The translations under genes were made by a program, and so were the position numbers. The notes beneath the pieces are model-generated. The model saw only the letters and a program-made list of their open reading frames with translations, was not told the origin of the DNA and did not search any database. 64,000 bases of DNA from Porticoccaceae bacterium (lineage in GTDB: Bacteria; Pseudomonadota; Gammaproteobacteria; Pseudomonadales; Porticoccaceae): the NCBI GenBank assembly GCA_018069525.1, contig JAGPUQ010000024.1, positions 13,748 through 77,747 on the forward strand. The letters are read 5' to 3'. This document shows, piece by piece, positions 7,167 to 63,609 of this stretch (position 1 is its first letter; the number at the start of each line of letters is the position of its first letter).

Positions 7167-8285
7167 ATGCCTAAACGATTAGTTGTGTCCGCAGTTAATT
7201 TGGTCGAAGGTGGGACGCTTACAGTGTTGCGCGATTGCCTTGCAGCGGCGGTCGAAACGCTCCCCCCTGAGTGGGAAATTATTGCCGTGGTACATGATCG
7301 TAAGCTGTTTTCTGCTGAACGAGTGCGGTTTATCGATTTTCCTGATGTTAAGCGATCATGGTTGCGACGCTTGTACCATGAGTTTTTTCAACTTGGAAAA
7401 CTTTCCCGAGAACTTAAACCCGATGTATGGTTTTCCCTTCACGACATGTCACCTCGGGTTCAGGCACCACGGCAAGTGGTTTACTGCCACAACCCCTCGC
7501 CGTTCTATCGACCGCGGCTACGCGAGGCTTTGTGGGAACCGAAGTTTTTTCTATTTACACTTTTTTATCGTTATCTGTATCGCATCAATATTCACGCGAA
7601 CACTTTAGTTGTGGTACAGCAAGACTGGATTCGTAGAGAGTTTCAGCGCATGTATGGCGTGGATCATGTGGCCGTGGCCCACCCGGTTATCAATGAATCT
7701 CCAAGACAAAATACGCGCGCACTTTCTGAGCGGCCGGACGTGTTTTTTTATCCATCCTTGCCGAGAGTATTCAAGAATTTCGAAGTGCTGTGCGAGGCTG
7801 CGCAGATTCTCTATCGACGGCTGGGGGATGTGTTTGAAGTGCGTTTAACTCTCTCCGGGAACGAATCGCGTTATGCAGCCTATCTCCACCGGCGTTACTC
7901 CACCTCGCCAGTTATTCGTTTCATTGGGCTACAAAATAAGGAACAAATGATACAGCAATACCAGGAGGCTTCTACAGTTGTGTTTCCGTCTCGACTTGAG
8001 ACCTGGGGCTTGCCAATTTCGGAAGCCAAACATTGGGGTAAAACACTTCTGGTTGCCGATTTACCGTATGCACACGAAACGGTAGGAGATTATGGCAAGG
8101 TGATTTTTTTTGACTCTCTTGACCCCAACCAATTGGCTGATTTTATGGAGGCCCAGCTTGAAAATGAGCTGCAGGTTGGTGTGCACACACAGTCCGACAT
8201 TGCCCAGCCGTTCGCGGCGAATTGGGATGAGCTTATTCGCCTTGTAATTGGCGAGCCTGTCAGCCCAGTAGCCGAACGACCGTGA
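7167..8285 (+). CDS. family-1/4 (GT-B) glycosyltransferase
   Basis: EX7E-type motif FPSRLETWGLPISEAKHWGKTLLV. I trimmed the start from 7101 to ATG 7167 (MPKRLVVSAVNLVEGG), 14 nt after the upstream stop. Confidence 0.75.
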   Translation: MPKRLVVSAVNLVEGGTLTVLRDCLAAAVETLPPEWEIIAVVHDRKLFSAERVRFIDFPDVKRSWLRRLYHEFFQLGKLSRELKPDVWFSLHDMSPRVQAPRQVVYCHNPSPFYRPRLREALWEPKFFLFTLFYRYLYRINIHANTLVVVQQDWIRREFQRMYGVDHVAVAHPVINESPRQNTRALSERPDVFFYPSLPRVFKNFEVLCEAAQILYRRLGDVFEVRLTLSGNESRYAAYLHRRYSTSPVIRFIGLQNKEQMIQQYQEASTVVFPSRLETWGLPISEAKHWGKTLLVADLPYAHETVGDYGKVIFFDSLDPNQLADFMEAQLENELQVGVHTQSDIAQPFAANWDELIRLVIGEPVSPVAERP

Positions 8286-9031
8286 TTTCCATATCAATTG
8301 TCAGTCATGGCCAAGCTAAATTGATTGCAAGGGTGATGGCTGACCTGGCGGCAATTGCGGGCTCGTTAAACTTTGAACTCATTTTAACTAAAAATATTCC
8401 AGAGCAGTGGACCTTCTTGATGGAGGAGCTACCCTATCCTGTAAAAATTATCGAGAACGCAACTCCCAGGGGTTTCGGTGCAAACCATAATGCTGCGTTT
8501 CAGCTGGCGGGAGGTAAGTGGTTTTGCGTGCTGAACCCCGATATTCGTATGCCGACGAACCCGTTTCCACTTTTACTCGAGGCGCTAACAGGACCATCTG
8601 CATGCGTAGTGGCACCAGCGATCCTTGCGCCGACCGGACAGATTGAAGACAGCGTACGACGATTCCCCACTCCGCTTTCACTATTTATGAAAACCTGGGG
8701 GAAGGGAGACGGTCGATATTTGTTTTCGGTGAATGATGCGCCGTTTTCAGTCGATTGGGTGGGGGGAATGTTTATGTTGTTCGGCGCCGAAAATTACAGG
8801 CGTGTGGGTGGTTTTGACGAGGGGTTTTTCCTCTATTATGAAGATGTGGATATTTGCGTACGTTTACAAAAGTTCGGTGGTCGAGTGATAGCTTGTCCGC
8901 AAGCTCAAGTCATTCACGATGCGCGTCGCTCTAGCCGGAGCGATTTTAGGTACTTGCGTTGGCATATTGCCAGCCTGGTGCGCTATCTTGTCAAACATTG
9001 GTTGCGGTTGCCGAAAACAGATAAGTTGTGA
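8282..9031 (+). CDS. family-2 glycosyltransferase (rhamnosyltransferase-like)
   Basis: SIVSHGQ...NPD...GGFDEGFFLYYEDVDICVRL is typical of the GT2 WbbL-like group. The GTG start overlaps the upstream stop (GTGA). Confidence 0.7.
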   Translation: MISISIVSHGQAKLIARVMADLAAIAGSLNFELILTKNIPEQWTFLMEELPYPVKIIENATPRGFGANHNAAFQLAGGKWFCVLNPDIRMPTNPFPLLLEALTGPSACVVAPAILAPTGQIEDSVRRFPTPLSLFMKTWGKGDGRYLFSVNDAPFSVDWVGGMFMLFGAENYRRVGGFDEGFFLYYEDVDICVRLQKFGGRVIACPQAQVIHDARRSSRSDFRYLRWHIASLVRYLVKHWLRLPKTDKL

Positions 9032-9615: not shown

Positions 9616-9692
9616 TTGTATAAACTCGCGGGTAATGAAAAATTTTACAAATAATGTATGTCCGGCGCTTGGTTTTAAAGGGGAGGTAAAAA

Positions 9693-10226
9693 ATGGAAGA
9701 AAACGTATTAGGTCACATAGATAAGGTGTTCGAGGGAGTAGCCTTCGAGTTCGTATGGCAAAATATTACCCCTGAATTGATTGAAGAAGCAAAAAATTTC
9801 TGGGTTTCTGAAAATGCAATTCCAGCGAGCGGAGATGTCGAGTCCAGAGCTCGTCAATTGATGGTTGTAGTCAGGGACTCTGAGCATAAAATCATTGCGG
9901 TAAGTACCGCAGAATGCCTGCCAATTCCTCAGTTACTTAATAATATGTTTTATTATTTCCGCTGCTTTGTTTCCTCAAGCCGTCGTCAGGAAGGGCTGCT
10001 TATGGAGATGTCTCACAAGGCCAGAGAGTATACGCATCCGCAGTTCTTAAGCGGTGAAAACACTGAAGCGAAAGGGTTCTACTACTCGCTGGAGAGCGAG
10101 ATACTCAAAGAAGCGATGACTGAGGCGGTTTTAACTGTAGGCGGTTTAGATCATTCGTTTATTGGGCTTGATAACAGAGGGCGCCGTTTGTTCGTCGGCT
10201 GGTTTGATGGTGCCAAAATAGATTGA
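9693..10226 (+). CDS. hypothetical protein, GNAT-like fold suspected (tandem paralogue 2)
   Basis: 177 aa. It shares FEFVW-NI-PELIE...FWVSENA...SRARQL-VV-RD...IIAV-TAE...VGWFDGA-ID with 9091..9615. Confidence 0.45.
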   Translation: MEENVLGHIDKVFEGVAFEFVWQNITPELIEEAKNFWVSENAIPASGDVESRARQLMVVVRDSEHKIIAVSTAECLPIPQLLNNMFYYFRCFVSSSRRQEGLLMEMSHKAREYTHPQFLSGENTEAKGFYYSLESEILKEAMTEAVLTVGGLDHSFIGLDNRGRRLFVGWFDGAKID

Positions 10227-51674: not shown

Positions 51675-52478
51675 TTAACCCTGGTCTGGGTCGACATCGC
51701 TACCTTCGTCAACATCATCTTGATTATCTTCGCTGGATTTTTGTTTTGCGCGGTACACCCAGCGACCGAAAAATACGCCGACCTCAAACAGTAACCACAT
51801 GGGTATTGCCAGCATGGCCTGGGAGATCACATCGGGTGGTGTTAGTAGCATGGCGAGAACAAAACAGCCGACGACGATATAAGGCCGTTTGTCAGTGAGG
51901 CCCCTGGGGGTGAGTACACCGGCCCAAATTAGAATGACGGTGGCAATGGGAATTTCAAAGGCGATGCCAAAGGCAAAAAATAATTTAAGTACGAAGTCCA
52001 GATAATAGGAAATGTCGGTCATCACTGCGACGCTTTCCGGGCCGACCTGGGTAAAAAACCCGAACACCGCAGGGAAAACGACGTAATAGGCAAACGCCAT
52101 TCCAGAGTAAAACAAAGCGACGCTGGAGATAAAAAGAGGCAGCACGATATGGCGTTCTTTTTGGTAAAGCCCCGGCGCCACAAAGGCCCATACTTGATAG
52201 AGAATAAACGGCATGGCTGCAAAGAGCGCCAGTATCAGGGTTAATTTAAACGGGGTCAGGAAGGGGGAGGCCACCTGAGTGGCGATCATGGTAGAGCCTT
52301 CCGGCAAGTACACTCTTAGGGGTTCGGAGACAAAAGTATAAAGCTCGTTGGCAAAGGGAAACATGCACAGGAATAACAGCGCGATCACCATCACCATACG
52401 CAGCAGGCGGTCGCGCAATTCGATCAGGTGATCGGCCAGGGCCATATTGTCGGAGGTGTTGGCGCTAGTCTCGCTCAC
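51675..52478 (-). CDS. tatC: twin-arginine translocase subunit TatC
   Basis: Polytopic protein with HLIELRDRLL near the N-terminus. It holds the canonical position after tatB. Confidence 0.9.
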   Translation of the reverse strand: MSETSANTSDNMALADHLIELRDRLLRMVMVIALLFLCMFPFANELYTFVSEPLRVYLPEGSTMIATQVASPFLTPFKLTLILALFAAMPFILYQVWAFVAPGLYQKERHIVLPLFISSVALFYSGMAFAYYVVFPAVFGFFTQVGPESVAVMTDISYYLDFVLKLFFAFGIAFEIPIATVILIWAGVLTPRGLTDKRPYIVVGCFVLAMLLTPPDVISQAMLAIPMWLLFEVGVFFGRWVYRAKQKSSEDNQDDVDEGSDVDPDQG

Positions 52479-52978
52479 TGCTCGGCCTTGCTGTGGTCTA
52501 TATCGGTGTTGTCAGCTTCGCTGCTCAGTTTGTTTGGCTTCTTGTCAGGAAGGTCGTCGGGCAAGTTGTCAGGAGCGTCGTGAGGAAAGCCGTCGGGTAT
52601 CTGATCAGGAAAGTCGTCGGGGAAGTCATCGTCATCGATAAAATCTATATCTTCAGCGTCCTGATCGAGGAGCGATGACTGATCACCGTCAGAGTCAGCG
52701 CCTTTAGCGGACTTGTTTTGCCCTTGATTGAACTGTTCCTCAACTTCCCTGCGCTCTTTGTCGAGTTGCTCAAGCAATAAGCTGTTGTGCACCTCGCGTT
52801 TGATTTCGTCGATGCCGAATTCCCGTTCCATTTCCTGACGGGCATCGCCGACGGTACGGCGCAGCTTGCCCGTCCAGTAGCCGATAAATCGAGCGGCTTC
52901 TGGTAGGCGCTTGGGCCCAATCACAATCAATGCGATCAGGCCAATCAACATTAATTCGGCGAAGCCGATATCGAACAC
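52475..52978 (-). CDS. tatB: twin-arginine translocase subunit TatB
   Basis: MFDIGFAELMLIGLIALIVIGPKRLPE. The C-terminal half is built of PD-rich repeats. Confidence 0.9.
   Translation of the reverse strand: MFDIGFAELMLIGLIALIVIGPKRLPEAARFIGYWTGKLRRTVGDARQEMEREFGIDEIKREVHNSLLLEQLDKERREVEEQFNQGQNKSAKGADSDGDQSSLLDQDAEDIDFIDDDDFPDDFPDQIPDGFPHDAPDNLPDDLPDKKPNKLSSEADNTDIDHSKAEQ
52544..52639 (-). repeat. In-frame 12/24-bp tandem repeats encoding the acidic PDxF/L tail of TatB
   Basis: gtcaggaaggtcgtcgggcaagtt / gtcaggagcgtcgtgaggaaagcc / gtcgggtatctgatcaggaaagtc / gtcggggaagtcatcgtcatcgat (plus-strand reading). Confidence 0.75.
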
Positions 52979-53033
52979 GGGAAGCTCTCTAGCTGATTAG
53001 ATAGGGGGAGTGGGGATGCTTAGGAGGTGAGGC

Positions 53034-53297
53034 CTAAACCTTGGTTTCTTCTTTACTGCTTTCTTCAGCGCTTTCTTCAGCGCTTGCTTCTGCACTTTGC
53101 TGGGTCATATCAGCGGCGTCTTCGCCATCTTCTACCTGTTTTTGCTCGTCGTCTTTGTTGCCCATGGCGTCTTTGAAGCCCTTGATTGCGCCACCGACAT
53201 CGCCACCGATATTTTTAAGCCGCTTGGTGCCGAAAATCAGCAATACGATTGCCAAAATAATCAGCAGTTGCCACATACTAATGCCACCTAAGCCCAT
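53034..53297 (-). CDS. tatA: twin-arginine translocase subunit TatA
   Basis: [27 protein letters not shown]. The C-terminal tail [12 protein letters not shown] comes from 12-bp x3 repeats at 53058-53093. Confidence 0.9.
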
Positions 53298-53310
53298 AAC
53301 GTTCTCCTAA

Positions 53311-53655
53311 TTATTTGTTGCGGCTGGCTTTTTCGTCCAGCCCGGATAGACCGAAACGACGGTCGAGTTCCTGTAGTACAGACCCGGCATTCTCGCCCAG
53401 GTGGGAGAGCATTACCAGTGAATGAAACCAAAGGTCGGCAGTTTCGCTAATCAACTCACTGCAATCGCCACTTTGTGCTGCGTCTTTGGCGGCCAGTACT
53501 GTTTCCGTGCACTCTTCGCCGACTTTTTCGAGGATTTTGTTTAAACCCTTTGCGTGCAGGCTGGCGACGTAGGACTGGTCAGGATCGCCACTCTTCCTGG
53601 CCTCGAGAACCTCGGTGAGTTGTTGCAGGGTGTTGTTGGTCAAAGCATCGCTCAT
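53311..53655 (-). CDS. hisE: phosphoribosyl-ATP pyrophosphatase HisE
   Basis: [31 protein letters not shown]...[13 protein letters not shown]. Confidence 0.9.
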
Positions 53656-53689
53656 GGTGTGTTTACGTCTTGTGTATTGGAATAACTCG

Positions 53690-54163
53690 TCAGGATGAAT
53701 ACAGCTGTTTTGGGTCTTTTAACACGGCGTCTATGGTTTGCCATTTGCCGTCTTCAAATTTCCGGTAAAAACAAGTTGCTCTACCCGTATGACAGGCGAT
53801 GCCGCCGACCTGTTCCACCTGCAGCAAAATAACATCCTGATCGCAATCGAGACGCAATTCGCGGATAAGCTGGATGTTCCCAGATTCTTCGCCTTTGCGC
53901 CATAACTTTTGGCGGGAGCGGGACCAGTACACGGCCCGCTGTTCTGCAACGCTTAGCGCCAGGGCTTCCCGGTTCATCCACGCCACCATCAATACCGTAC
54001 CGCTGCTGGCGTCCTGGGCAATGGCGGGCACCAGACCGTCGGCGTTCCAGCGCACCTCGTCAAGAAACGCGGTATCAGCGGTATCAATAGCGGGGCTTGA
54101 TGGCGCGCCAGTGGCGGGATTTGATGGGGCGCCAGTGGCGGAATTTGATGGAGAATCGGACAC
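53690..54163 (-). CDS. hisI: phosphoribosyl-AMP cyclohydrolase HisI with a repeat-derived N-terminal extension
   Basis: GLVPAIAQD...MVAWMN...[17 protein letters not shown]...[10 protein letters not shown]. The N-terminus [20 protein letters not shown] is encoded by 24-bp repeats. Confidence 0.9.
54094..54163 (-). repeat. 24-bp x~3 in-frame tandem repeat at the 5' end of hisI
   Basis: ttgatgg recurs at 54097, 54121 and 54145. The units encode PSN(S/P)ATGA. Confidence 0.8.
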
Positions 54164-54202
54164 GTTATCGCTGCCAAAAGTGTTGTATTAAAGCTGATTA
54201 TC

Positions 54203-55759
54203 TCAGTTTAGGCCGAGCAGTAACAGCGCGCCACCAGCGGCGACACCGACGGCAATGCCGAGGGAGAAAATTAGCGCAGTCTTAATGCTGAGCCCATTGG
54301 ATGACGCCCGTGCATCGGCAAGGGCTTGCAGCGACTGGTCTATATGACTGATGCGCTCTAAACCTTGAAACATCAACTGCGGGACCTGGGGGAACTGCTC
54401 TAGCCACTCCGGGCCGTGACGTTTGAGTTGCTCCAGCAAGCGAGTGGGTTTAAAGCGTTGTTTGAGCCATTTTTCGAGGAAGGGGTGAGCGGTATCCCAA
54501 AGGTTGAGGTCGGGGTAGAGCTGTCGTCCCAGCCCTTCGATATTGAGCAGTGTTTTCTGCAGCAGGACCAAAGAGGGTTGAATCTCGGTATCAAAGCGGC
54601 GGGCAACTCGAAACAAATTAATAAGCAGATGTGCCAGCGAAATATCTTTGAGAGGGCGTTGGAAAATGGGTTCGCAGACGGTGCGTATGGCACTCTCGAA
54701 CTCGTTTACGGGAGTGCCTTTGGGAACCCAGCCGGAGAGAATATGCAGCTCTGCGACTTGTCGGTAGTCGCGACGAAACACCGCGAGAAAATTGCGTGCC
54801 AGATAATACATATCTGTATCCGACAGTGTGCCCACCACGGCACAATCGATGGCGATGTAGCGAGCGTGTTCCGGCCTACTGGTATCGACAAAAATATTGC
54901 CGGGATGCATATCGGCGTGGAAAAAGTTGTGCTCGAAAACCTGGGTAAAAAAGATTTCGACGCCGCGCTCGGCGAGTACCTTAAAGTCGGTGTTGGCAGC
55001 GCGCAGGGTCTCGATGTCGGTGACCGGAGTGGCGTAGATGCGCTCCATGACCAGTACGTCGGTGTTGGTATAAGGCCAGTACACTTCCGGCACATAGAGC
55101 AGTGGCGAGTGCTCAAAGTTGCGGCGCAAAATCGCAGTGTTGGCGGCTTCTCGCTGTAGATCGAGTTCGTCGAGAATCGTGGTGCGGTAATCGCGGGCGA
55201 CTTCTATGGGCCGCAGTCGCCGGGCTTCGGCACTGTATTTTTCCAGCGTGCGGGCCAGGGCAACAAGGAGAGCACAATCTTGTTTAATGGTTTTCTGGAT
55301 ACCGGGGCGAATGGCTTTAATCACCACTTCGCGACCATCTTCAAGCGTTGCGGCATGAACCTGAGCAACCGATGCGGAGGCCAGAGGCTCGCGCTCAAAA
55401 CTGGCAAACAGAGTGTCGAGGCTCCCGCCAAGGGCGGATTCCACAATAGTCACAAATTGTGCGCTGGGAAAGGGCGGCACGTCGTCCTGCAGTTTGTTGA
55501 GCTCGATGCAAATATCCGCAGGGATTAAGTCGGGTCGGGTCGACAGTAATTGACCGAATTTGATAAATACCGGGCCGAGACGCTCGATGGCCAGACGCAG
55601 GCGAACCCCGCGAGCCTGTTTTGGTTTGGGCAGAATACGCAATAAGGCCAGGGGGTAGCGTAGCGGCCAGGGCAGCTTTAAACCCTCGGGCAGCGTATCG
55701 AGCCGGTAGCGCAGTACCACCCAGAGAATATGCAGCGAGCGCAGCAATGAGGTAATCAT
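54203..55759 (-). CDS. ubiB: ubiquinone biosynthesis regulatory kinase UbiB
   Basis: ABC1/UbiB kinase pattern ([18 protein letters not shown]..., [23 protein letters not shown]). Two C-terminal TM segments. Confidence 0.95.
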
Positions 55760-55760
55760 G

Positions 55761-55814
55761 ATTTAGCGGTCATGCTGAATTTGACGCTCAGGCTGAATTT
55801 AACGCTCATACTGA
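55761..55814 (-). repeat. 18-bp x3 in-frame repeat: ubiJ stop region reiterated (three TGA codons 18 nt apart) up to the ubiB ATG
   Basis: Minus strand: tca gta TGA gcg tta aat / tca gcc TGA gcg tca aat / tca gca TGA ccg cta aat, then cATG (ubiB). Confidence 0.85.
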
Positions 55815-56528
55815 TGGCTCGCGATTGAGCAGGGGCTCTAGTTTGGCGAACACAGCGTCCAGCGGGTTTTTAGGCTTGCCACTTTTTGTTTCGACCCCCT
55901 TGGGGTGGCGCTCCTCGTCGCGGTAGTTTGCGTAACTTTCCCAAACGCGTTGGGCGCCATCATTGGACCAGGCCCTGGCGCTTTCGATACCTTGACTAAA
56001 CAGGTGGGCAGGGATGTCGCCGACCCGATCTTCAATGCGATCGGAGAGTGTGTTTTGCCAATCGATGTCGAGTTGCCGCAGGGTGCTTAAAATTTTCAGC
56101 AGGCGCGCAATATCGCCCTCGACCGTGAGGCCAGAGGGCAGCTCACCGCTGTTTCGCCAGAGCCATTGGCCGAGCGCGAGGGGTGTGCTGTGAACCTTTA
56201 TATCCGCTACAGGGTTATTTATGTCCGACGCTACAGGGCTGTTTATACCCGCCGCTACAGGGCTGTTACCCGAAATCGGTTGCAAGCTAAGTTCGCCGTG
56301 CTGCAGTGTGAGTAATATCGTGCTGATAGTTTCCGGGATAACACCGGCCAGCAGCGGTAACAGGCGAGCGGCCGTATCCGCAGCGGTTCCCCCTGTGGTC
56401 AGATTGAACACCACGGTAGCTTCGCCCAGCGCGGCGAGCTCATCCCGGCGTTTTGGATCTTCGCCAAGGGCCTCGTTGATAAGCGCAGCCGCTCTTTGAC
56501 AGGCGATGTCTTCAGCTACGCTGATCAA
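55806..56528 (-). CDS. ubiJ: ubiquinone biosynthesis accessory factor UbiJ (SCP2-like)
   Basis: It sits between ubiE and ubiB, and its N-terminal region is SCP2-like. An internal 8-aa x3 repeat ([24 protein letters not shown]) is encoded by 24-bp repeats at 56202-56273. Confidence 0.75.
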
Positions 56529-57349
56529 ACTTGTGGGCCCTTTTTACCTTGGGTGCTATTTTGAATGTCTTGTTGAGTGTCTTCTTGGGTGCTTTGTTGA
56601 ACGCCTTTGACACCCTTGTGGAGGGCGACAATGCCGCCGGTCATATTGTGGTATTGGCACTGGGAGAAACCCGCATCTTCCATCATAGTTTGCAGGGTGC
56701 CCTGATCGGGATGCATGCGGATGGATTCGGCGAGATAGCGATAGCTATCGGCATCGCCGGTGATGATTTTGCCTATTTTAGGGAGCAGGTGGAACGAATA
56801 TTGATCGTAGACTTTTTCCAGCACCGGGTTGCCCGGTTTGGAAAACTCCAGCACCAGCAGGCGGCCACCGGGTTTCAGGCACGCTTGCATGGAGCGTAGC
56901 GCGCGGGCTTTGTCGGTGACGTTGCGCAGGCCAAAGGCTATGGTGATGCAGTCGAAGGTGTTGTCGGGGAAAGGTAGCTGCTCGGCGTCGGCAAGAGAGT
57001 AAGCGATATTTCCGGTGACGCCGCGGTTGAGCATGCGATCCCGCCCGACCTTGAGCATGGATTCGTTAATGTCGGCGAGAATCACCTGGCCTTGAGGCCC
57101 GACCTTGCGAGCAAATTTGGCGGCGAGATCGCCAGTACCACCGGCGATATCGAGCACTCGATGTCCCGGTCTGACGGCAGCCATTTCCACCGTGGCCTGT
57201 TTCCAGATGCGATGCAGGCCGCCTGACATCAGGTCGTTCATAACATCGTATTTGGCCGCCACGGAGTCAAATACCTCGGCGACCCGGGAGGACTTCTGCC
57301 CGGTGGCGACTTGTTCAAAGCCGAAATGGGTGGTTTTTTCTTCGTTCAT
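56525..57349 (-). CDS. ubiE: demethylmenaquinone/ubiquinone C-methyltransferase UbiE
   Basis: THFGF...[12 protein letters not shown]...FGLRNVTD. A ~23-aa Gln/Thr-rich C-terminal extension is built of repeats ([17 protein letters not shown]). Confidence 0.95.
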
Positions 57350-59464: not shown

Positions 59465-60268
59465 CTACTTTAGATGCCCCAGATGTTTGCCGACAATGCT
59501 CAACGTCGGTTTAAACAGGCGAGGAGTGCTAGCGACGATATGACCGGTATCGAGATAACTGTCGCCGCCCTGAAAGTCGCTGATCATGCCGCCAGCTTCA
59601 CGTACTAAGAGTACGCCAGCAGCGATATCCCAGGGCTGTAAGTACATTTCCCAAAAGGCGTCGTAGCGTCCGGCGGCGACATAGGCCAGGTCCAGAGAGG
59701 CCGCACCCATGCGACGAATTCCAGATGAATCATCGGCCAGATCCTTTACGCAGGTCAAATAAGGATCGATATTGTCGAAAGGTTTACTGCTAAACGGAAT
59801 GCCCGTGGCAAATAAAGCTCCGGCCCTGGCGAGCCGCCCCGATACCCGAATGCGCTGGCCATTTAAAAAAGCGCCCTTGCCGCGGCTAGCGGTAAATTCT
59901 TCGCGCTTGATGGGGTCGTAAACCACGGCGTGTTCCAGGCGGCCCTTATAACGGAAGGCAATGGACACCGCATAGTGGGGAATGCCGCGGATAAAATTAG
60001 TGGTGCCGTCCAGGGGATCAATCAGCCACTCGCTGTCCGTGTCCCGACCTGCCTGTGCGCCGAACTCTTCGCTGACAATACTGTGGTCGGGATAGGCTTT
60101 GCGCAGATGCTCGATAATAATGCTTTCGGCATCCCGATCGACTTCGCTGACGTAGTCGTGTTGACCTTTGGCTTCTACTTTAATCCGGTCGAGTCGATCG
60201 GAGGCACGCACGATTTGCACACCAGCGGCGCGAGCGGCTTGCAGTGCAATGGATAGCATCGGTTCCAT
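59465..60268 (-). CDS. suhB: inositol monophosphatase family protein SuhB
   Basis: MEPMLSIALQAARAAG, WLIDPLDGTTNF, WDIAAG. Confidence 0.9.
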   Translation of the reverse strand: MEPMLSIALQAARAAGVQIVRASDRLDRIKVEAKGQHDYVSEVDRDAESIIIEHLRKAYPDHSIVSEEFGAQAGRDTDSEWLIDPLDGTTNFIRGIPHYAVSIAFRYKGRLEHAVVYDPIKREEFTASRGKGAFLNGQRIRVSGRLARAGALFATGIPFSSKPFDNIDPYLTCVKDLADDSSGIRRMGAASLDLAYVAAGRYDAFWEMYLQPWDIAAGVLLVREAGGMISDFQGGDSYLDTGHIVASTPRLFKPTLSIVGKHLGHLK

Positions 60269-60455
60269 AGAATATAGAGATCATGTCGCAATAGAAGGCC
60301 GCGCATCATACCAGAATGGTTTATTGAGAGAGTGGTTTTTACTGATCCTAGAGCCAGTTTCAGTGGTGGCGCGGTGCGTTGCTCACCTGAGATATGCTGT
60401 CAGCATCGGGCAAATATGGGTTCGAGACGTAATTGGCTTAATGACTTGAGCTTTT

Positions 60456-60530
60456 GGGTTCCGGTTAAGGCGCTAAGCTAAAATGGCCCGGTTAAGGCGC
60501 TAGCATGGCCCGGTTAAGGCGCTAGCATGG
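60456..60530. repeat. 22-bp iterons upstream of the mini-peptide gene (two perfect copies + one degenerate)
   Basis: atggcccggttaaggcgctagc occurs at 60483-60504 and identically at 60505-60526. A degenerate copy gggttccggttaaggcgctaagc is at 60456-60478. A 6-1-6 palindrome ATGCTG-T-CAGCAT is at 60394-60406. Confidence 0.9.
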
Positions 60531-60659
60531 ATTGCCCCTCGGCATAATCGGCGCTTGTATACTATTTGCGGGCGTTTTACAATGAGGTTTCGCAACATTT
60601 TGTTGCCTTGGCTTACACGTGCAACCTTATCATATTCCATATGCACAACGGTGAAAGAC

Positions 60660-60878
60660 ATGAAGACTGAGAACGATGTGAAGACAAATATGAAGATAGA
60701 CCTGAAGACCGAGCAGGCTTCGGTACCAGAAGATAATGCTCGCCGGGCTTTCCTGAAACATAGCGCCTATGCGGCCTACACCACGCCAGCTATCCTGTCG
60801 TTGGTGGTTTCGGGTCGCGCGGCTGCGACCTCGCATTTTAATTGCCCGCCTAAGAGTCAAAACCCCGGCTGTCCGTAG
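60660..60878 (+). CDS. 72-aa pre-peptide: Tat-type signal peptide + 16-residue two-Cys C-terminal tail (candidate modified/exported peptide)
   Basis: MKTENDVKTNMKIDLKTEQASVPEDNARRAFLKHSAYAAYTTPAILSLVVSGRAAATSHFNCPPKSQNPGCP. I trimmed the track ORF 60555..60878 to ATG 60660; in-frame alternatives are GTG 60678 and ATG 60690. It lies immediately upstream of the PqqD-like/kinase gene. Confidence 0.5.
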   Translation: MKTENDVKTNMKIDLKTEQASVPEDNARRAFLKHSAYAAYTTPAILSLVVSGRAAATSHFNCPPKSQNPGCP

Positions 60879-60916
60879 CCAAACCCCCGACTGTGTTTGA
60901 CAACTGGATTTGATCG

Positions 60917-60943
60917 GAAGGTTCTCGGTCTCTGCGAACCTTC
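60917..60943 (+). terminator. 8-bp stem-loop after the peptide gene (possible attenuator/processing site)
   Basis: GAAGGTTC-N11-GAACCTTC. No U-tract follows. Confidence 0.3.
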
Positions 60944-61089
60944 AGCGTATTAAAAGATTAGAGATCAAAACAGAGCGAATTAAGGGACTAGGCGTTGTGA
61001 AGAGAAGTAAAGTTTCCCGCTGATCGACACAGTTCTGTATTCGTTGACTTGAGACAGGGCAGCATTAAAGACACTATACTCTGCCCACC

Positions 61090-62322
61090 TTGAAACTCTC
61101 AAAACCTCGCGCTGATATCAATTTCCTACCGTTTTTAGACGGTGCAGTGCTATTCCACGTTGCGACACAAAGGCTGTGGGTCTTGAATAGCTCGCAGACT
61201 TTTATTTGGTGTTGGTTAGAAGAGTGCACAGGTATCGAGCAACTCGCTCACAAGCTCAGCGATACCTTTGATATTAGTCTCAAGCAGGCTAAATCAGATA
61301 CGCAGTTAGCATTTGATAGTCTGGCTGGAAACGGTCTGCTAGAAGGAGGGAGCCTTCTAGCGCCCAGCCCCGAGCCAGCGGGGCAAGATTTACTTGCGCC
61401 GCTGGGCCATACCGTTAAACCAACGCTTAACGAAACCGCATCTAGTCGGCTTCGTCTGAGCATCCTCAACACCTATATTGTGATAACGATAGAGGATCCG
61501 GTTTTACTGGGAGAAATGTTAAGGATATACGCGCCGTTTCTCGATGAGGGCGTTGTTCCTGATGCGTCGTCGGCTGAGCTATCATTAATCGTCCGCGCTG
61601 TATCGCCGGGAGCTACGGGGTTAAATCATTTCGATATTCTTATTGATCATCAAAGCCTGGGTTTAGACATTAGCAGAGAAAGGCTTGTCCCTTACCTGGT
61701 GACTGCGATTTTCCAAAAGGTTTCCAGGCAGCTGGGAGGCCAGGTAGCGCTGCATAGCGCAGCACTTACCCGTGCTGAGACAACCTTGATTTTCCCCGCC
61801 AATTCGGGCGCTGGAAAATCCACTCTTTGTGCTGTGCTGATGTCGAAAGGGTGGGGCTGCTTAAGCGATGAACTGGCTATTCTTAATCCCGTGGAAGCTT
61901 TGGTTACACCACTACCCTTACCGATGAGTATAAAATCTGGATCCATCGATCCCTTACGTCGGTATTACCCAGAGCTAGTAAGCTACCCTTTGCACCATAG
62001 GGCTGACGGCAAGCAGGTGAGATACTTGCCGATTAAGACTCTCGACGCAGTCAATAAACGGGATTCTTACGCTCTTTCAGCGATTGTTTTGCCAACATAT
62101 TCACCGGGTGAAAACACAAAATTATTATCTGTGAGTAAAATAACAGCCCTGGAAAAAATAACGGAAACGGGTTCGTCTGAGCGCCTGCTGACAGTAGAGG
62201 ATATCCGCAGTCTTATTAGTTTGATTGAAAAAATACCCTGTTATCAATTGGTGTATGGGTCAACTGAAGAAGCTGCAGATGTCCTGGACGCGTTTGTGGA
62301 TGGGACGTATCAGGTCAGTTGA
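61090..62322 (+). CDS. PqqD-like (RRE) domain fused to an HPr-kinase-C-like P-loop domain
   Basis: The N-terminus FLPFLDGAVLFHVATQRLWVLNSSQTFIWCWLEE..IEQLAHKLSDTFDISLKQAKSDTQLAFDSLAGNGLLE matches the PqqD pattern. The C-terminal half has LHSAALTRAETTLIFPANSGAGKSTLCAVLMSKGWGCLSDELAIL, as in HprK-related kinases. TTG start. Confidence 0.6.
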   Translation: MKLSKPRADINFLPFLDGAVLFHVATQRLWVLNSSQTFIWCWLEECTGIEQLAHKLSDTFDISLKQAKSDTQLAFDSLAGNGLLEGGSLLAPSPEPAGQDLLAPLGHTVKPTLNETASSRLRLSILNTYIVITIEDPVLLGEMLRIYAPFLDEGVVPDASSAELSLIVRAVSPGATGLNHFDILIDHQSLGLDISRERLVPYLVTAIFQKVSRQLGGQVALHSAALTRAETTLIFPANSGAGKSTLCAVLMSKGWGCLSDELAILNPVEALVTPLPLPMSIKSGSIDPLRRYYPELVSYPLHHRADGKQVRYLPIKTLDAVNKRDSYALSAIVLPTYSPGENTKLLSVSKITALEKITETGSSERLLTVEDIRSLISLIEKIPCYQLVYGSTEEAADVLDAFVDGTYQVS

Positions 62323-62377
62323 ATCTGAAGTCTTTCTACATGCGCCCTAGCTATAAATTTTTTCCGGATTTAGCGAG

Positions 62378-63589
62378 GTGCCCGTGAGATACGACTGGTT
62401 ATCTTTTGCTGGATACTCTAACGTGCTCCCCATGAACAATAGCTACGTCTTGCTCGGTAATTTTTTAGCGCCGGTAAAAAACGGTGAAGTGCTCAATACC
62501 TTAAAAAAAGCGATTACTGAGGAGTCGATCAACTGGGAGAGCTTAGTGCTTCAGGCTAATACCCAGATGTGTACGCCGCTTCTCTTTGCCCGTCTTAAAC
62601 AGGATGACCTGCTGCAATACCTGCCAGAAAATCTGCAGGAATATTTGCGAGTGATCTACGACAGTAATTTGATGCGAAACGAGGCATTGAAAACTGGATT
62701 AGAACCACTCTTGCAAATGTTTGCGGATGAAAATATCGATTCGATACTACTCAAGGGCGCGGCAACCTTTGTGGACGAACTTTATACCGCACCGGGATCG
62801 CGATATATGGGGGATTTGGATATTCTCATACCCGAGGAAAAAATATCCCTCGCCCGCCAATTCTTGATCACTTCGGGCTTTGACGAAATTCACGACCCGT
62901 ATATGGAGTTTTCTGGTCAACCCACTGACGTCCGTCACCACCAGATTCAACGGTATCTGAAACCCGGGACGCCCGTCGCGATTGAGCTGCATTTTAAGCT
63001 TGCCTACGGCCAGGCTGGACGAGTTGTAGAGACTGAGGCGGCCTGGGAGAACGCTGAAAATGTTGTTTTTCGAGGTATAAAGACCAAGGTTTTATCGCCG
63101 ACCTATCGCGTGTTGCATAATGTTATTCACGGATTACTTCCGCATTGTGAATATATAAAGGGAGAGGTATCCCTGCTGCAATTGGCTGAGTTTTCGGCGC
63201 TTGCGGCGCGCTACGGGGAAGAAATTGACGGGCTTGTACCCAAAGTTTTGTGCGCCCGACAAAATCTTAGTAAAGAGTTACGTGGTTACACCGGTCTTGC
63301 TCGAAAATTGATGTTTTTGGAGGCCACCGACTTAGGGAGCGAGGAAATACCGAAATGGCATTTAGACCGCATTGTTAGCGTTGGGGACAGCGGAGCGCAG
63401 CTTGACAATATGGATAAATCTTTTTCTTTAAAGCTTCGACTGTTCACGTACAAAATATATTATTTTATGAAGCTGCCTGGCTGGTTTTGGGATAATGTCA
63501 GTTACGCTGAGGGCGAAGGGGCTTTTTGGAGTCGAATCCGACTGTTGCTCGCTAGATTGTTTAGCTTCAGAAGTTGGAAAAAAATCTGA
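62378..63589 (+). CDS. PF14907-type 'uncharacterised nucleotidyltransferase' family protein
   Basis: ILLKGAATFVDELYTAPGSRYMGDLDILIPEEKISLARQFLITSGF matches the LKG...R...DlDiL signature I associate with NTP_transf_5. The start is GTG 62378 or ATG 62432. Confidence 0.55.
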   Translation: MPVRYDWLSFAGYSNVLPMNNSYVLLGNFLAPVKNGEVLNTLKKAITEESINWESLVLQANTQMCTPLLFARLKQDDLLQYLPENLQEYLRVIYDSNLMRNEALKTGLEPLLQMFADENIDSILLKGAATFVDELYTAPGSRYMGDLDILIPEEKISLARQFLITSGFDEIHDPYMEFSGQPTDVRHHQIQRYLKPGTPVAIELHFKLAYGQAGRVVETEAAWENAENVVFRGIKTKVLSPTYRVLHNVIHGLLPHCEYIKGEVSLLQLAEFSALAARYGEEIDGLVPKVLCARQNLSKELRGYTGLARKLMFLEATDLGSEEIPKWHLDRIVSVGDSGAQLDNMDKSFSLKLRLFTYKIYYFMKLPGWFWDNVSYAEGEGAFWSRIRLLLARLFSFRSWKKI

Positions 63590-63609
63590 GGGTTGATCAT
63601 AGGTAATGA

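Follow-up and report, generated by a model that had tools for sequence, protein, structure and literature searches.

HprK-like kinases that act on ribosomal peptides have been described in lasso peptide clusters. The kinase BsfK phosphorylates Ser3 in the core of its precursor, and the reaction is strongly accelerated by BsfB1, a RiPP recognition element protein (RRE; RiPP, peptide made by the ribosome and modified after translation). The leaders of lasso precursors carry the motif YxxPxL at positions -17 to -12 (PMC10368454 for both). In the pseudomycoidin pathway, PsmK phosphorylates a Ser of the precursor, and PsmN, described as from 'a family of uncharacterised nucleotidyltransferases', is needed for the addition of one or two hexoses to the phosphate (PMC6993621). 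Other RiPP precursors carry an export signal of the cell, namely a Sec signal in the bufferins (PMC11626156; see also PMC12710340) and a lipoprotein signal in the DAG-RiPPs (PMC13056109). One paper only speculates on the use of twin-arginine translocation (Tat) for lanthipeptide display, and reports failed attempts (PMC5686179); no RiPP precursor with a Tat signal was found in the literature searched. The present analysis concerns a small gene at 60660..60878 (+ strand) in a stretch of 64,000 nucleotides from a Porticoccaceae bacterium (contig JAGPUQ010000024.1; hereafter the window), together with the two enzyme genes that follow it. The balance of the sequence comparisons leans toward a three-gene module that modifies and exports a peptide, with a Tat signal doubling as the RiPP leader.

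The gene has 72 codons plus a stop, and is translated into MKTENDVKTNMKIDLKTEQASVPEDNARRAFLKHSAYAAYTTPAILSLVVSGRAAATSHFNCPPKSQNPGCP (72 aa), in which a Tat-type leader precedes a core of 16 residues. The translation, the motif ARRAFLK, the AAA site and the 16-residue tail with two Cys are all as given in a preliminary description of the sequence. An identical 72-aa protein is present in the database as a 'hypothetical protein' from a Porticoccaceae metagenome-assembled genome (P0001). The n-region (60660..60713) consists of four in-frame xTGAAGAy units (M/V/M/L-K-T/I) and includes an alternative start, ATG 60690. The twin-arginine motif A-R-R-A-F-L-K (residues 27–33; 60738..60758), which is recognized by its conservation in the family described below, is followed by the h-region AYAAYTTPAILSLVV, with a mean Kyte-Doolittle hydropathy of 1.42, and by the c-region G-R-A-A-A (60813..60827). 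Tat signals have S/T-R-R-x-F-L-K at the boundary of the n- and h-regions, a weakly hydrophobic h-region of about 12–20 aa, and an AxA c-region, often with a basic residue; the peptide has an RR motif of this type, such an h-region, and an AxA site. From the family statistics, signal peptidase I is predicted to cut after A56 (AAA|TS), which is the sole site in the window peptide that fits the whole family ([A/S]-x-A).

A cut after A56 places Y40, P43, and I45 at positions -17, -14, and -12, and Ser58 at +2. The first three belong to Y40-T-T-P43-A-I45 (60777..60794), a YxxPx(L/I/M) sequence within the h-region, and their register is that of the lasso leader motif YxxPxL. On the strength of this register and of family conservation, the sequence is a putative RRE-binding element. 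Ser58 (codon 60831..60833), the second residue of the predicted mature peptide, is the proposed phospho-acceptor, likewise on the basis of family conservation. It had been noted earlier that several Ser/Thr of the tail could be phosphorylated; the family narrows the candidate to Ser58. The core TSHFNCPPKSQNPGCP (60828..60875) contains two Cys around an 8-residue Pro-rich loop, and its codons 63–72 (60846–60875) are hypervariable.

A profile of six members of the peptide family retrieved 129 proteins, and when 1.84 billion cluster representatives were scanned exhaustively with HMMER (E ≤ 1e-3), 186 of them matched, 33–131 aa in length and none of them functionally named. The family has no model in Pfam or NCBIfam (June 2026 release). 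Its carriers are rare (9/185,579 species genomes) and belong exclusively to lineages of the Pseudomonadota or Desulfobacterota, which include Porticoccaceae, Cycloclasticus, Desulfuromonadales, and Geobacteraceae.

Conservation at each position was counted over 251 aligned members. The two Arg are essentially invariant (R28 in 246/249 and R29 in 249/249), and F31 (239/251) and L32 (247/251) are nearly so. The residues that follow are also highly conserved, with S35 in 228/251, Y37 in 230/251, A38 in 236/251, Y40 in 240/251, T42 in 219/250, P43 in 247/250, and V50 in 220/250, while position 45 is I/M/V/L. Further on, A55 is found in 208/244 members, and position 58 is Ser or Thr in 224/238. The consensus may be written as xRR(E/D)FLRKSxYAAYATPxITALLVxKASAAxS, in which YAxYxTP is nearly invariant. 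The n-regions, in contrast, are variable and K/E/D-rich (median 18 aa). The h-regions have about 15–16 residues, contain Pro, Tyr, and Thr, and have a mean hydropathy of 1.55 ± 0.31. The c-region includes K or R in 149/250 members. Depending on which of two adjacent candidate cleavage sites is chosen, the residue at -1 is Ala in 140–202 of the 239 members, and that at -3 is Ser or Ala in 154–201 of the 239. Tat-signal models are the only recurrent profile matches of the family, all of them below threshold: among 56 members, TIGR02811 was matched by 26, PF10399 by 10, TIGR01409 by 9, and PF10518 by 2. With the window peptide, TIGR02811 gives 13.3 bits (cutoff 48.45), and the signal part alone is aligned.

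After position 58 the family is hypervariable, and includes peptides with two, four, or six Cys, poly-Pro, GN repeats, His/Gly repeats, and Asp/His-rich sequences. The predicted mature peptides have a median length of 24 residues (range 10–64), and their tails are hydrophilic, with 14.5% Pro, 12% Gly, 9% Asn, and few aliphatic residues. There are no Cys in 68 tails, two in 104, four in 51, six in 2, and an odd number in 14. Disulfide formation outside the cytoplasm would lead one to expect such even counts. In 33 members, the tail after position 58 contains no further Ser or Thr. The same leader carries very different cargo within the family; for example, P0189, P0203, and P0093 have metal-binding-like or low-complexity tails (HEGGGH repeats, an Asp/His-rich stretch, and GNGWGNG repeats).

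The reading frame is kept in two moderately diverged relatives, P0003 (at the syntenic locus L001) and P0002 (at L002), and in the near-identical strains L006 and L007. In the leader and the first residues of the core, the nonsynonymous divergence (pN) between the window and L001 and L002 is 0.07–0.10, while the synonymous divergence (pS) is 0.73–0.80. Wherever a relative has the enzymes, the frame of the ORF (open reading frame) is maintained too (the window and 18 other loci). On these comparisons, 60660–60878 is a real and conserved precursor-like gene.

The leader and the loop evolve very differently among near-identical strains. Between the window and L006, codons 1–62 differ at 3/186 nt and codons 63–72 at 15/30 nt (Fisher p = 2e-12), compared with 48/1173 nt in the kinase genes. 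In both L006 and L007 the Cys-bracketed loop (60846–60875) is replaced nearly codon by codon, through multi-nucleotide changes, while the leader and the enzymes are near-identical. The pattern is suggestive of diversifying selection or of cassettes being exchanged.

In 19/19 loci (the window and the 18 others with a family member), the peptide gene lies immediately beside a homologue of the same enzyme gene. It usually lies directly upstream of the enzyme gene, and directly downstream once (L003). In L018 there are two tandem peptide genes (9658–9930 and 10001–10189) with the same leader and different tails. A small gene next to a gene for an RRE enzyme, with a conserved leader and a variable core, is what is expected of an RRE-dependent RiPP precursor.

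In the window, this enzyme gene (61090..62322, + strand) encodes a fusion protein of 410 aa, consisting of a PqqD-like RRE (residues ~10–85) and an HprK-like P-loop kinase, with the P-loop SGAGKST at residues 239–245 (61804–61824, + strand). The RRE domain matches PF05402 (5.5e-8) and the lasso_PqqD model NF033530 (2.8e-6), and the solved proteins nearest to it by sequence are the lasso RREs TbiB1 and TfuB1. In the AF2 (AlphaFold2) model of the fusion (pLDDT 84.8, pTM 0.83), the N-terminal 84 residues superpose on leader-bound TbiB1 (5v1u_B) with a TMt of 0.81 and a root-mean-square deviation of 2.6 Å, and the remainder has the PEPCK/HprK P-loop fold (Foldseek PEPCK matches at 1e-6). Moreover, H222, G240-A-G-K-S244, and D260-E261 align with the residues needed for activity in BsfK. 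Both the fold and the motif H...GxGKS/T...D-D/E of HprK/PEPCK-like kinases are therefore present. The kinase matches TIGR04352 at 3.4e-34 with 118.2 bits, which is below the 200-bit cutoff and covers profile positions 88–279 only.

The third gene (62378..63589, + strand) encodes an NTP_transf_5 'uncharacterised nucleotidyltransferase' (PF14907, 6.3e-39) with a G-D-L-D (DxD) motif, and such a gene is present in most loci whose contig extends far enough. A search of the PDB with this protein sequence returned no match, and its single-sequence AF2 model is unusable (pLDDT 32.5). PF14907 receives only a passing mention in the literature searched, in a phosphonate survey.

The same three enzyme modules occur in the same gene order in the bioinformatically defined HPr-rel-A system (TIGR04352, the TIGR04353 PqqD family peptide chaperone, and NTP_transf_5). 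A literature search on HPr-rel-A, TIGR04352, and TIGR04353 brought up no paper that deals with it, and a model for its substrate was likewise not found. A metagenome scan with canonical HprK_rel_A kinases gave 65 loci, of which 36 had 1 kb or more of sequence upstream of the kinase and were counted. In 35 of these 36, a Tat-signal protein of 200–290 aa is encoded in front of the PqqD gene. These proteins start with SRRRLLKGGLAAAPVLMTLASRPVLA, which is directly followed by CxSPSAxxSGNxS, and they also contain a GxSPGFW motif. They are unannotated (e.g., L019:6952-7659, L021:2879-3634, and loci among L024–L078), and no Pfam or NCBIfam model exists for them. As in the window, the front gene has a Tat-type signal; in HPr-rel-A the signal is followed by the Ser-rich conserved stretch. 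The two systems differ in that the PqqD protein of HPr-rel-A is separate and its front gene encodes a 200–290 aa protein without YxxPxL. A Thauera protein scores 343 bits with TIGR04352, against 118 for the window kinase, which is below the cutoff of 200; the Tat protein of the Thauera system has 235 aa. The window nevertheless has the PqqD partner, fused N-terminally, and PF14907 as the next gene, and its module is a sister branch of the HPr-rel-A system.

A third arrangement is seen at L023, which encodes a distant RRE-kinase fusion. Here tandem ORFs of 96 aa (7910–8200 and 8381–8671), with SRRDAM...SAFA|Q, lie downstream of the very divergent RRE-kinase and nucleotidyltransferase genes; they have the same leader and different tails, and in one of the tails GN is repeated over a long stretch. 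Otherwise different in sequence, the mini-peptides, the 96-mers of the L023 type, and the 200–290 aa proteins share the layout of RR, h-region, and AxA. This common layout in the substrates of sister systems is the key argument that the Tat features are used as such.

Taking these results together, we infer how the RRE binds, which modification is made and at which site, and how export and cleavage proceed, as follows. The N-terminal 56 residues would serve as both a Tat signal peptide and a RiPP-type leader. In the cytoplasm, the lasso-B1-like RRE fused to the kinase would bind YxxPx(I/L/M) in the h-region, and the kinase would phosphorylate the near-invariant Ser58 just past the leader. The NTP_transf_5 enzyme would probably then decorate the phosphate on Ser58 with a hexose or a nucleotide-derived group. 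The RRE would release the peptide to TatBC, as Tat proofreading chaperones do, and Tat would export the small hydrophilic cargo. Signal peptidase I would cut after AAA, and a disulfide would form between Cys62 and Cys71 in the periplasm. What results would be a (phospho/glyco)peptide of about 16 residues, starting at Thr57 and differing between strains.

Phosphorylation of Ser58 by an RRE-docked kinase is proposed because of the lasso register, the near-invariance of Ser58, the 33 tails without other Ser or Thr, and the chemistry of BsfK and of PsmK/PsmN. The lack of a dedicated protease or transporter in the module is in keeping with export by Tat and cleavage by signal peptidase I. A Tat cargo of 16 residues had appeared anomalous in the preliminary description; this concern is softened by the documented Tat export of short, unstructured, hydrophilic polypeptides (PMC6708511). 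Two of the readings suggested there, that the leader is bound by the neighboring RRE and that cytoplasmic modification of the peptide precedes its export by Tat, both receive comparative support, and are best merged in the single mechanism above. A more general form of the proposal may be put forward with some reserve: the Tat signal would be the recognition element of a RiPP-type machine, the Ser at the junction of signal and cargo would be phospho(glyco)sylated before the hand-off to TatBC, and the ~190 clusters would represent a new class of exported ribosomal peptides.

Several observations weigh against this mechanism. A hand-off must be assumed, since one and the same segment of the leader would be contested by the RRE and TatBC. 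Replacement of the Y, P, or L of the motif by Ala in BsfA left phosphorylation unabolished (PMC10368454). Position 58 is neither Ser nor Thr in 14/238 members, and in one of these (P0184) the tail beyond AxA contains Tyr but lacks both Ser and Thr. The n- and c-regions of the family are often acidic, and the window peptide has no match to the Tat-signal profiles TIGR01409 and PF10518. Finally, PsmN is likened to the window nucleotidyltransferase by its description, as a presumptive member of PF14907. Some of these points lend themselves to other explanations. The peptide might be exported by Tat unmodified, with the RRE as a proofreading or escort chaperone and with the kinase and the nucleotidyltransferase acting on a sugar, lipid, or polysaccharide precursor. 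The tail of P0184 would agree with this, as would the recurrence of polysaccharide and nucleotide-sugar genes by the module in other taxa and a nucleotidyltransferase family that is biochemically undefined. Such a division of labor is nevertheless unlikely, because the fusion of RRE and kinase is typical substrate-delivery logic, the distance between the RRE motif and the near-invariant Ser58 is fixed, the substrates of BsfK/BsfB1 and PsmK/PsmN are peptides, and the island in the window is without polysaccharide genes. Conversely, the leader might be recognized by the RRE only, as a hydrophobic leader whose likeness to a Tat signal is unused, the peptide staying in the cell or leaving it otherwise. 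The h-region is indeed far more conserved than in ordinary signal peptides, which suits protein-protein recognition, and the window peptide falls under the thresholds of the Tat models. Yet lasso leaders have neither an RR, which is invariant here (249/249), nor the F, the L, the AxA, and the often basic c-region that accompany it; the same layout occurs in unrelated sister-system substrates without YxxPxL; and the Cys counts are even, with no dedicated protease or exporter encoded. This possibility is likewise regarded as improbable.

The predicted cleavage bears on another alternative, in which the peptide would be a tiny membrane protein with an uncleaved signal-anchor, its N-terminus inside and its 16-residue tail in the periplasm as a modified surface tag or glycan primer. 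A hydrophobic segment after positive charges, a conserved Ser near the membrane boundary, and the polysaccharide neighbors in other taxa speak for such a protein, which is doubtful given that an h-region of about 15–16 residues with Pro, Tyr, and Thr and a hydropathy of 1.55 is short and weak for a stable helix, and that a well-conserved AxA site follows it. It is very improbable that the gene is an orphan lasso peptide precursor with protease and cyclase elsewhere in the genome, despite the lasso-B1-like RRE, the YxxPx(L/I) in lasso register, and a kinase and a nucleotidyltransferase that are known lasso tailoring enzymes. No B2 or C gene is present in any annotated context, and lasso leaders are without an RR signal. 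Moreover, the core T-S-H-F-N-C-P-P-K... does not offer the ring pair of Gly/Ala/Ser/Cys1 and Asp/Glu7–9 (it has T1...P7 P8 K9). The module is therefore not a lasso system. The last of the readings given in the preliminary description, that the ORF is not expressed, is rejected at the level of sequence, on account of the conserved frame, a pN far below pS, and the Shine-Dalgarno sites in homologues. A chance ORF would explain why no + strand promoter or terminator passed the scan and why the sole annotation is 'hypothetical protein', but it is incompatible for practical purposes with this conservation under purifying selection, with the 186 clusters, and with the strict synteny with the enzyme. 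Two further ideas were rejected. In the one, the peptide would be a Tat 'hitch-hiker' that carries the kinase out, but the hypervariable tail is too small for a partner, and the kinase needs cytoplasmic ATP. In the other, the peptide would be a lipoprotein, but there is no lipobox Cys at +1.

The start of the peptide gene was described as ambiguous. The ambiguity is real, as ATG 60690 may also serve, but it is immaterial. ATG 60660 is favored because of its better Shine-Dalgarno sequence (GGTGA at 60650..60654, + strand, 5 nt ahead of the ATG) and the matching N-termini of P0002 and P0003. At other loci, homologues have clear AGGAG or GGAGG sites at equal spacing, and many have a strong Shine-Dalgarno sequence. 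A longer version from a TTG start at 60555 was rejected, since the added residues are not conserved. A stretch of 48 nt contains four in-frame TGAAGA sites (60661, 60679, 60691, and 60703), against a total of 38 sites on both strands of the window. The repeat of 12-nt units reported for this 5' end is real, except that it is not made up of strictly contiguous 12-mers, the first two being 6 nt apart. It just encodes the Lys/Glu-rich n-region. The relative P0002 (L002:328-567) begins with MRSDIMRSDIMK, an independent small tandem duplication in the n-region that resembles the TGAAGA units of the window.

Upstream of the gene, a promoter and terminator scan (threshold 9/12) found no + strand promoter site above threshold and no + strand terminator. 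A weak candidate sigma-70 promoter (TTGTAT, 17 nt, TACAAT; 60555..60583, + strand) with 8/12 matches may be recognized by eye, and its -10 reads TATAAT in the close relatives L006 and L007. A unit of ~22 nt (GCTAGCATGGCCCGGTTAAGGC) is present in three tandem copies at 60450–60520. In L006 and L007 its core CCGGTTAAGGC is present in a single copy, and the triplication might have arisen by local expansion or might serve as a site for a regulator. Downstream of the stop, an 8-bp GC-rich hairpin (GAAGGUUC...GAACCUUC; 60916–60943) without a U-tract is kept in part in L006 and L007. As a whole, the spacer of 211 nt that follows the peptide gene folds no better than shuffled sequences (z = 0.59). Therefore, neither an attenuator nor a terminator is claimed. 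An Rfam search of 60200–61150 found nothing credible.

The three-gene island (60400–63600) has a suhB-like gene on one side and a cinA/pncC-like gene on the other, each on the minus strand. Its G+C content (0.45–0.50) is lower than that of the flanks (0.53–0.60), which is compatible with horizontal acquisition. The recurrent neighbors of the module, in the window island and the annotated related loci, include no lasso protease (B2), lasso cyclase (C), or ABC exporter. In distant taxa they include GDP_Man_Dehyd/Epimerase, RmlD, Bac_transf/EPS_sugtrans, Wzy_C, EpsL-like BBP2_2, Poly_export, and Wzz. Such exopolysaccharide or nucleotide-sugar surroundings are seen at L003, L004, L005, L008–L016, and L018, and not in the window. 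VanZ and OmpA/Pal-like genes likewise recur near the module. The tatA, tatB, and tatC genes (51675–53297, minus strand) are indeed located where the preliminary description placed them, with their identities confirmed. They belong to a housekeeping block of ubiE-like, SCP2-like, ubiB (ABC1), and tatA-tatB-tatC genes (51675–57349, minus strand), 8 kb from the peptide gene. The order ubiE/ubiB/tatABC is the same in E. coli. Because the block is a housekeeping one, its proximity does not constitute a specific link to the mini-gene.

If the proposed mechanism is correct, it would provide the first natural Tat signal that serves as a RiPP leader found in the literature searched, and would explain why the module lacks a dedicated protease and exporter. 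It would also assign a substrate to the uncharacterized HPr-rel-A / NTP_transf_5 enzyme set. In canonical HPr-rel-A, the same logic of modification followed by Tat export would extend to whole proteins of 200–290 aa. A rationale for Tat would be the post-translational export of a cargo that bears a bulky modification. From the strain hypervariability of the Cys loop, the product may act in recognition or competition. Together with the polysaccharide neighbors in other taxa, this hypervariability hints at a surface, matrix, or inter-strain function. The leader might be used for the export of enzymatically modified peptides to the periplasm, and the three-gene system, at ~3 kb, is directly testable.

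Compared with the known systems, the module would work like the A/B1/K/N part of the phosphorylated lasso clusters. The window kinase and that of the Bradymonas sediminis BsfA/BsfB1/BsfK system, which also has an N gene, have the motif H...GxGKS...D(D/E) in common. The acceptor Ser lies at the very start of the core in both, i.e., Ser3 in BsfA and, as proposed, the Ser at +2 in the window peptide. In contrast to the Bsf system, the window has its RRE fused to the kinase and is without the B2 protease, C cyclase, and D exporter; its leader carries a complete Tat signal, and its core is unable to form a lasso ring. The pair of an HprK-family kinase and an uncharacterized nucleotidyltransferase acting on a ribosomal peptide, known from PsmK/PsmN and from PadeK of the paeninodin cluster, is also found in the window. 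PsmK/PsmN and PadeK, however, have as their target the C-terminal Ser of a lasso precursor; the last residue of the window peptide is Pro.

On the side of export, Tat proofreading chaperones such as TorD, DmsD, and NapD are cytoplasmic and hold on to a particular Tat signal peptide while its cargo is being readied. They differ from the RRE-kinase of the window in fold, and do not covalently modify a peptide cargo. TIGR02811, the 'formate dehydrogenase region TAT target', also describes a tiny Tat target, and is the most frequent sub-threshold profile match of the family. In the bufferins, the DAG-RiPPs, and the window peptide alike, a housekeeping export signal replaces the leader or serves as one, with no need for a dedicated protease or transporter. 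The bufferins and DAG-RiPPs combine Sec or Lsp signals with MNIO enzymes, while the window peptide has a highly conserved Tat-type signal that contains a putative RRE site.

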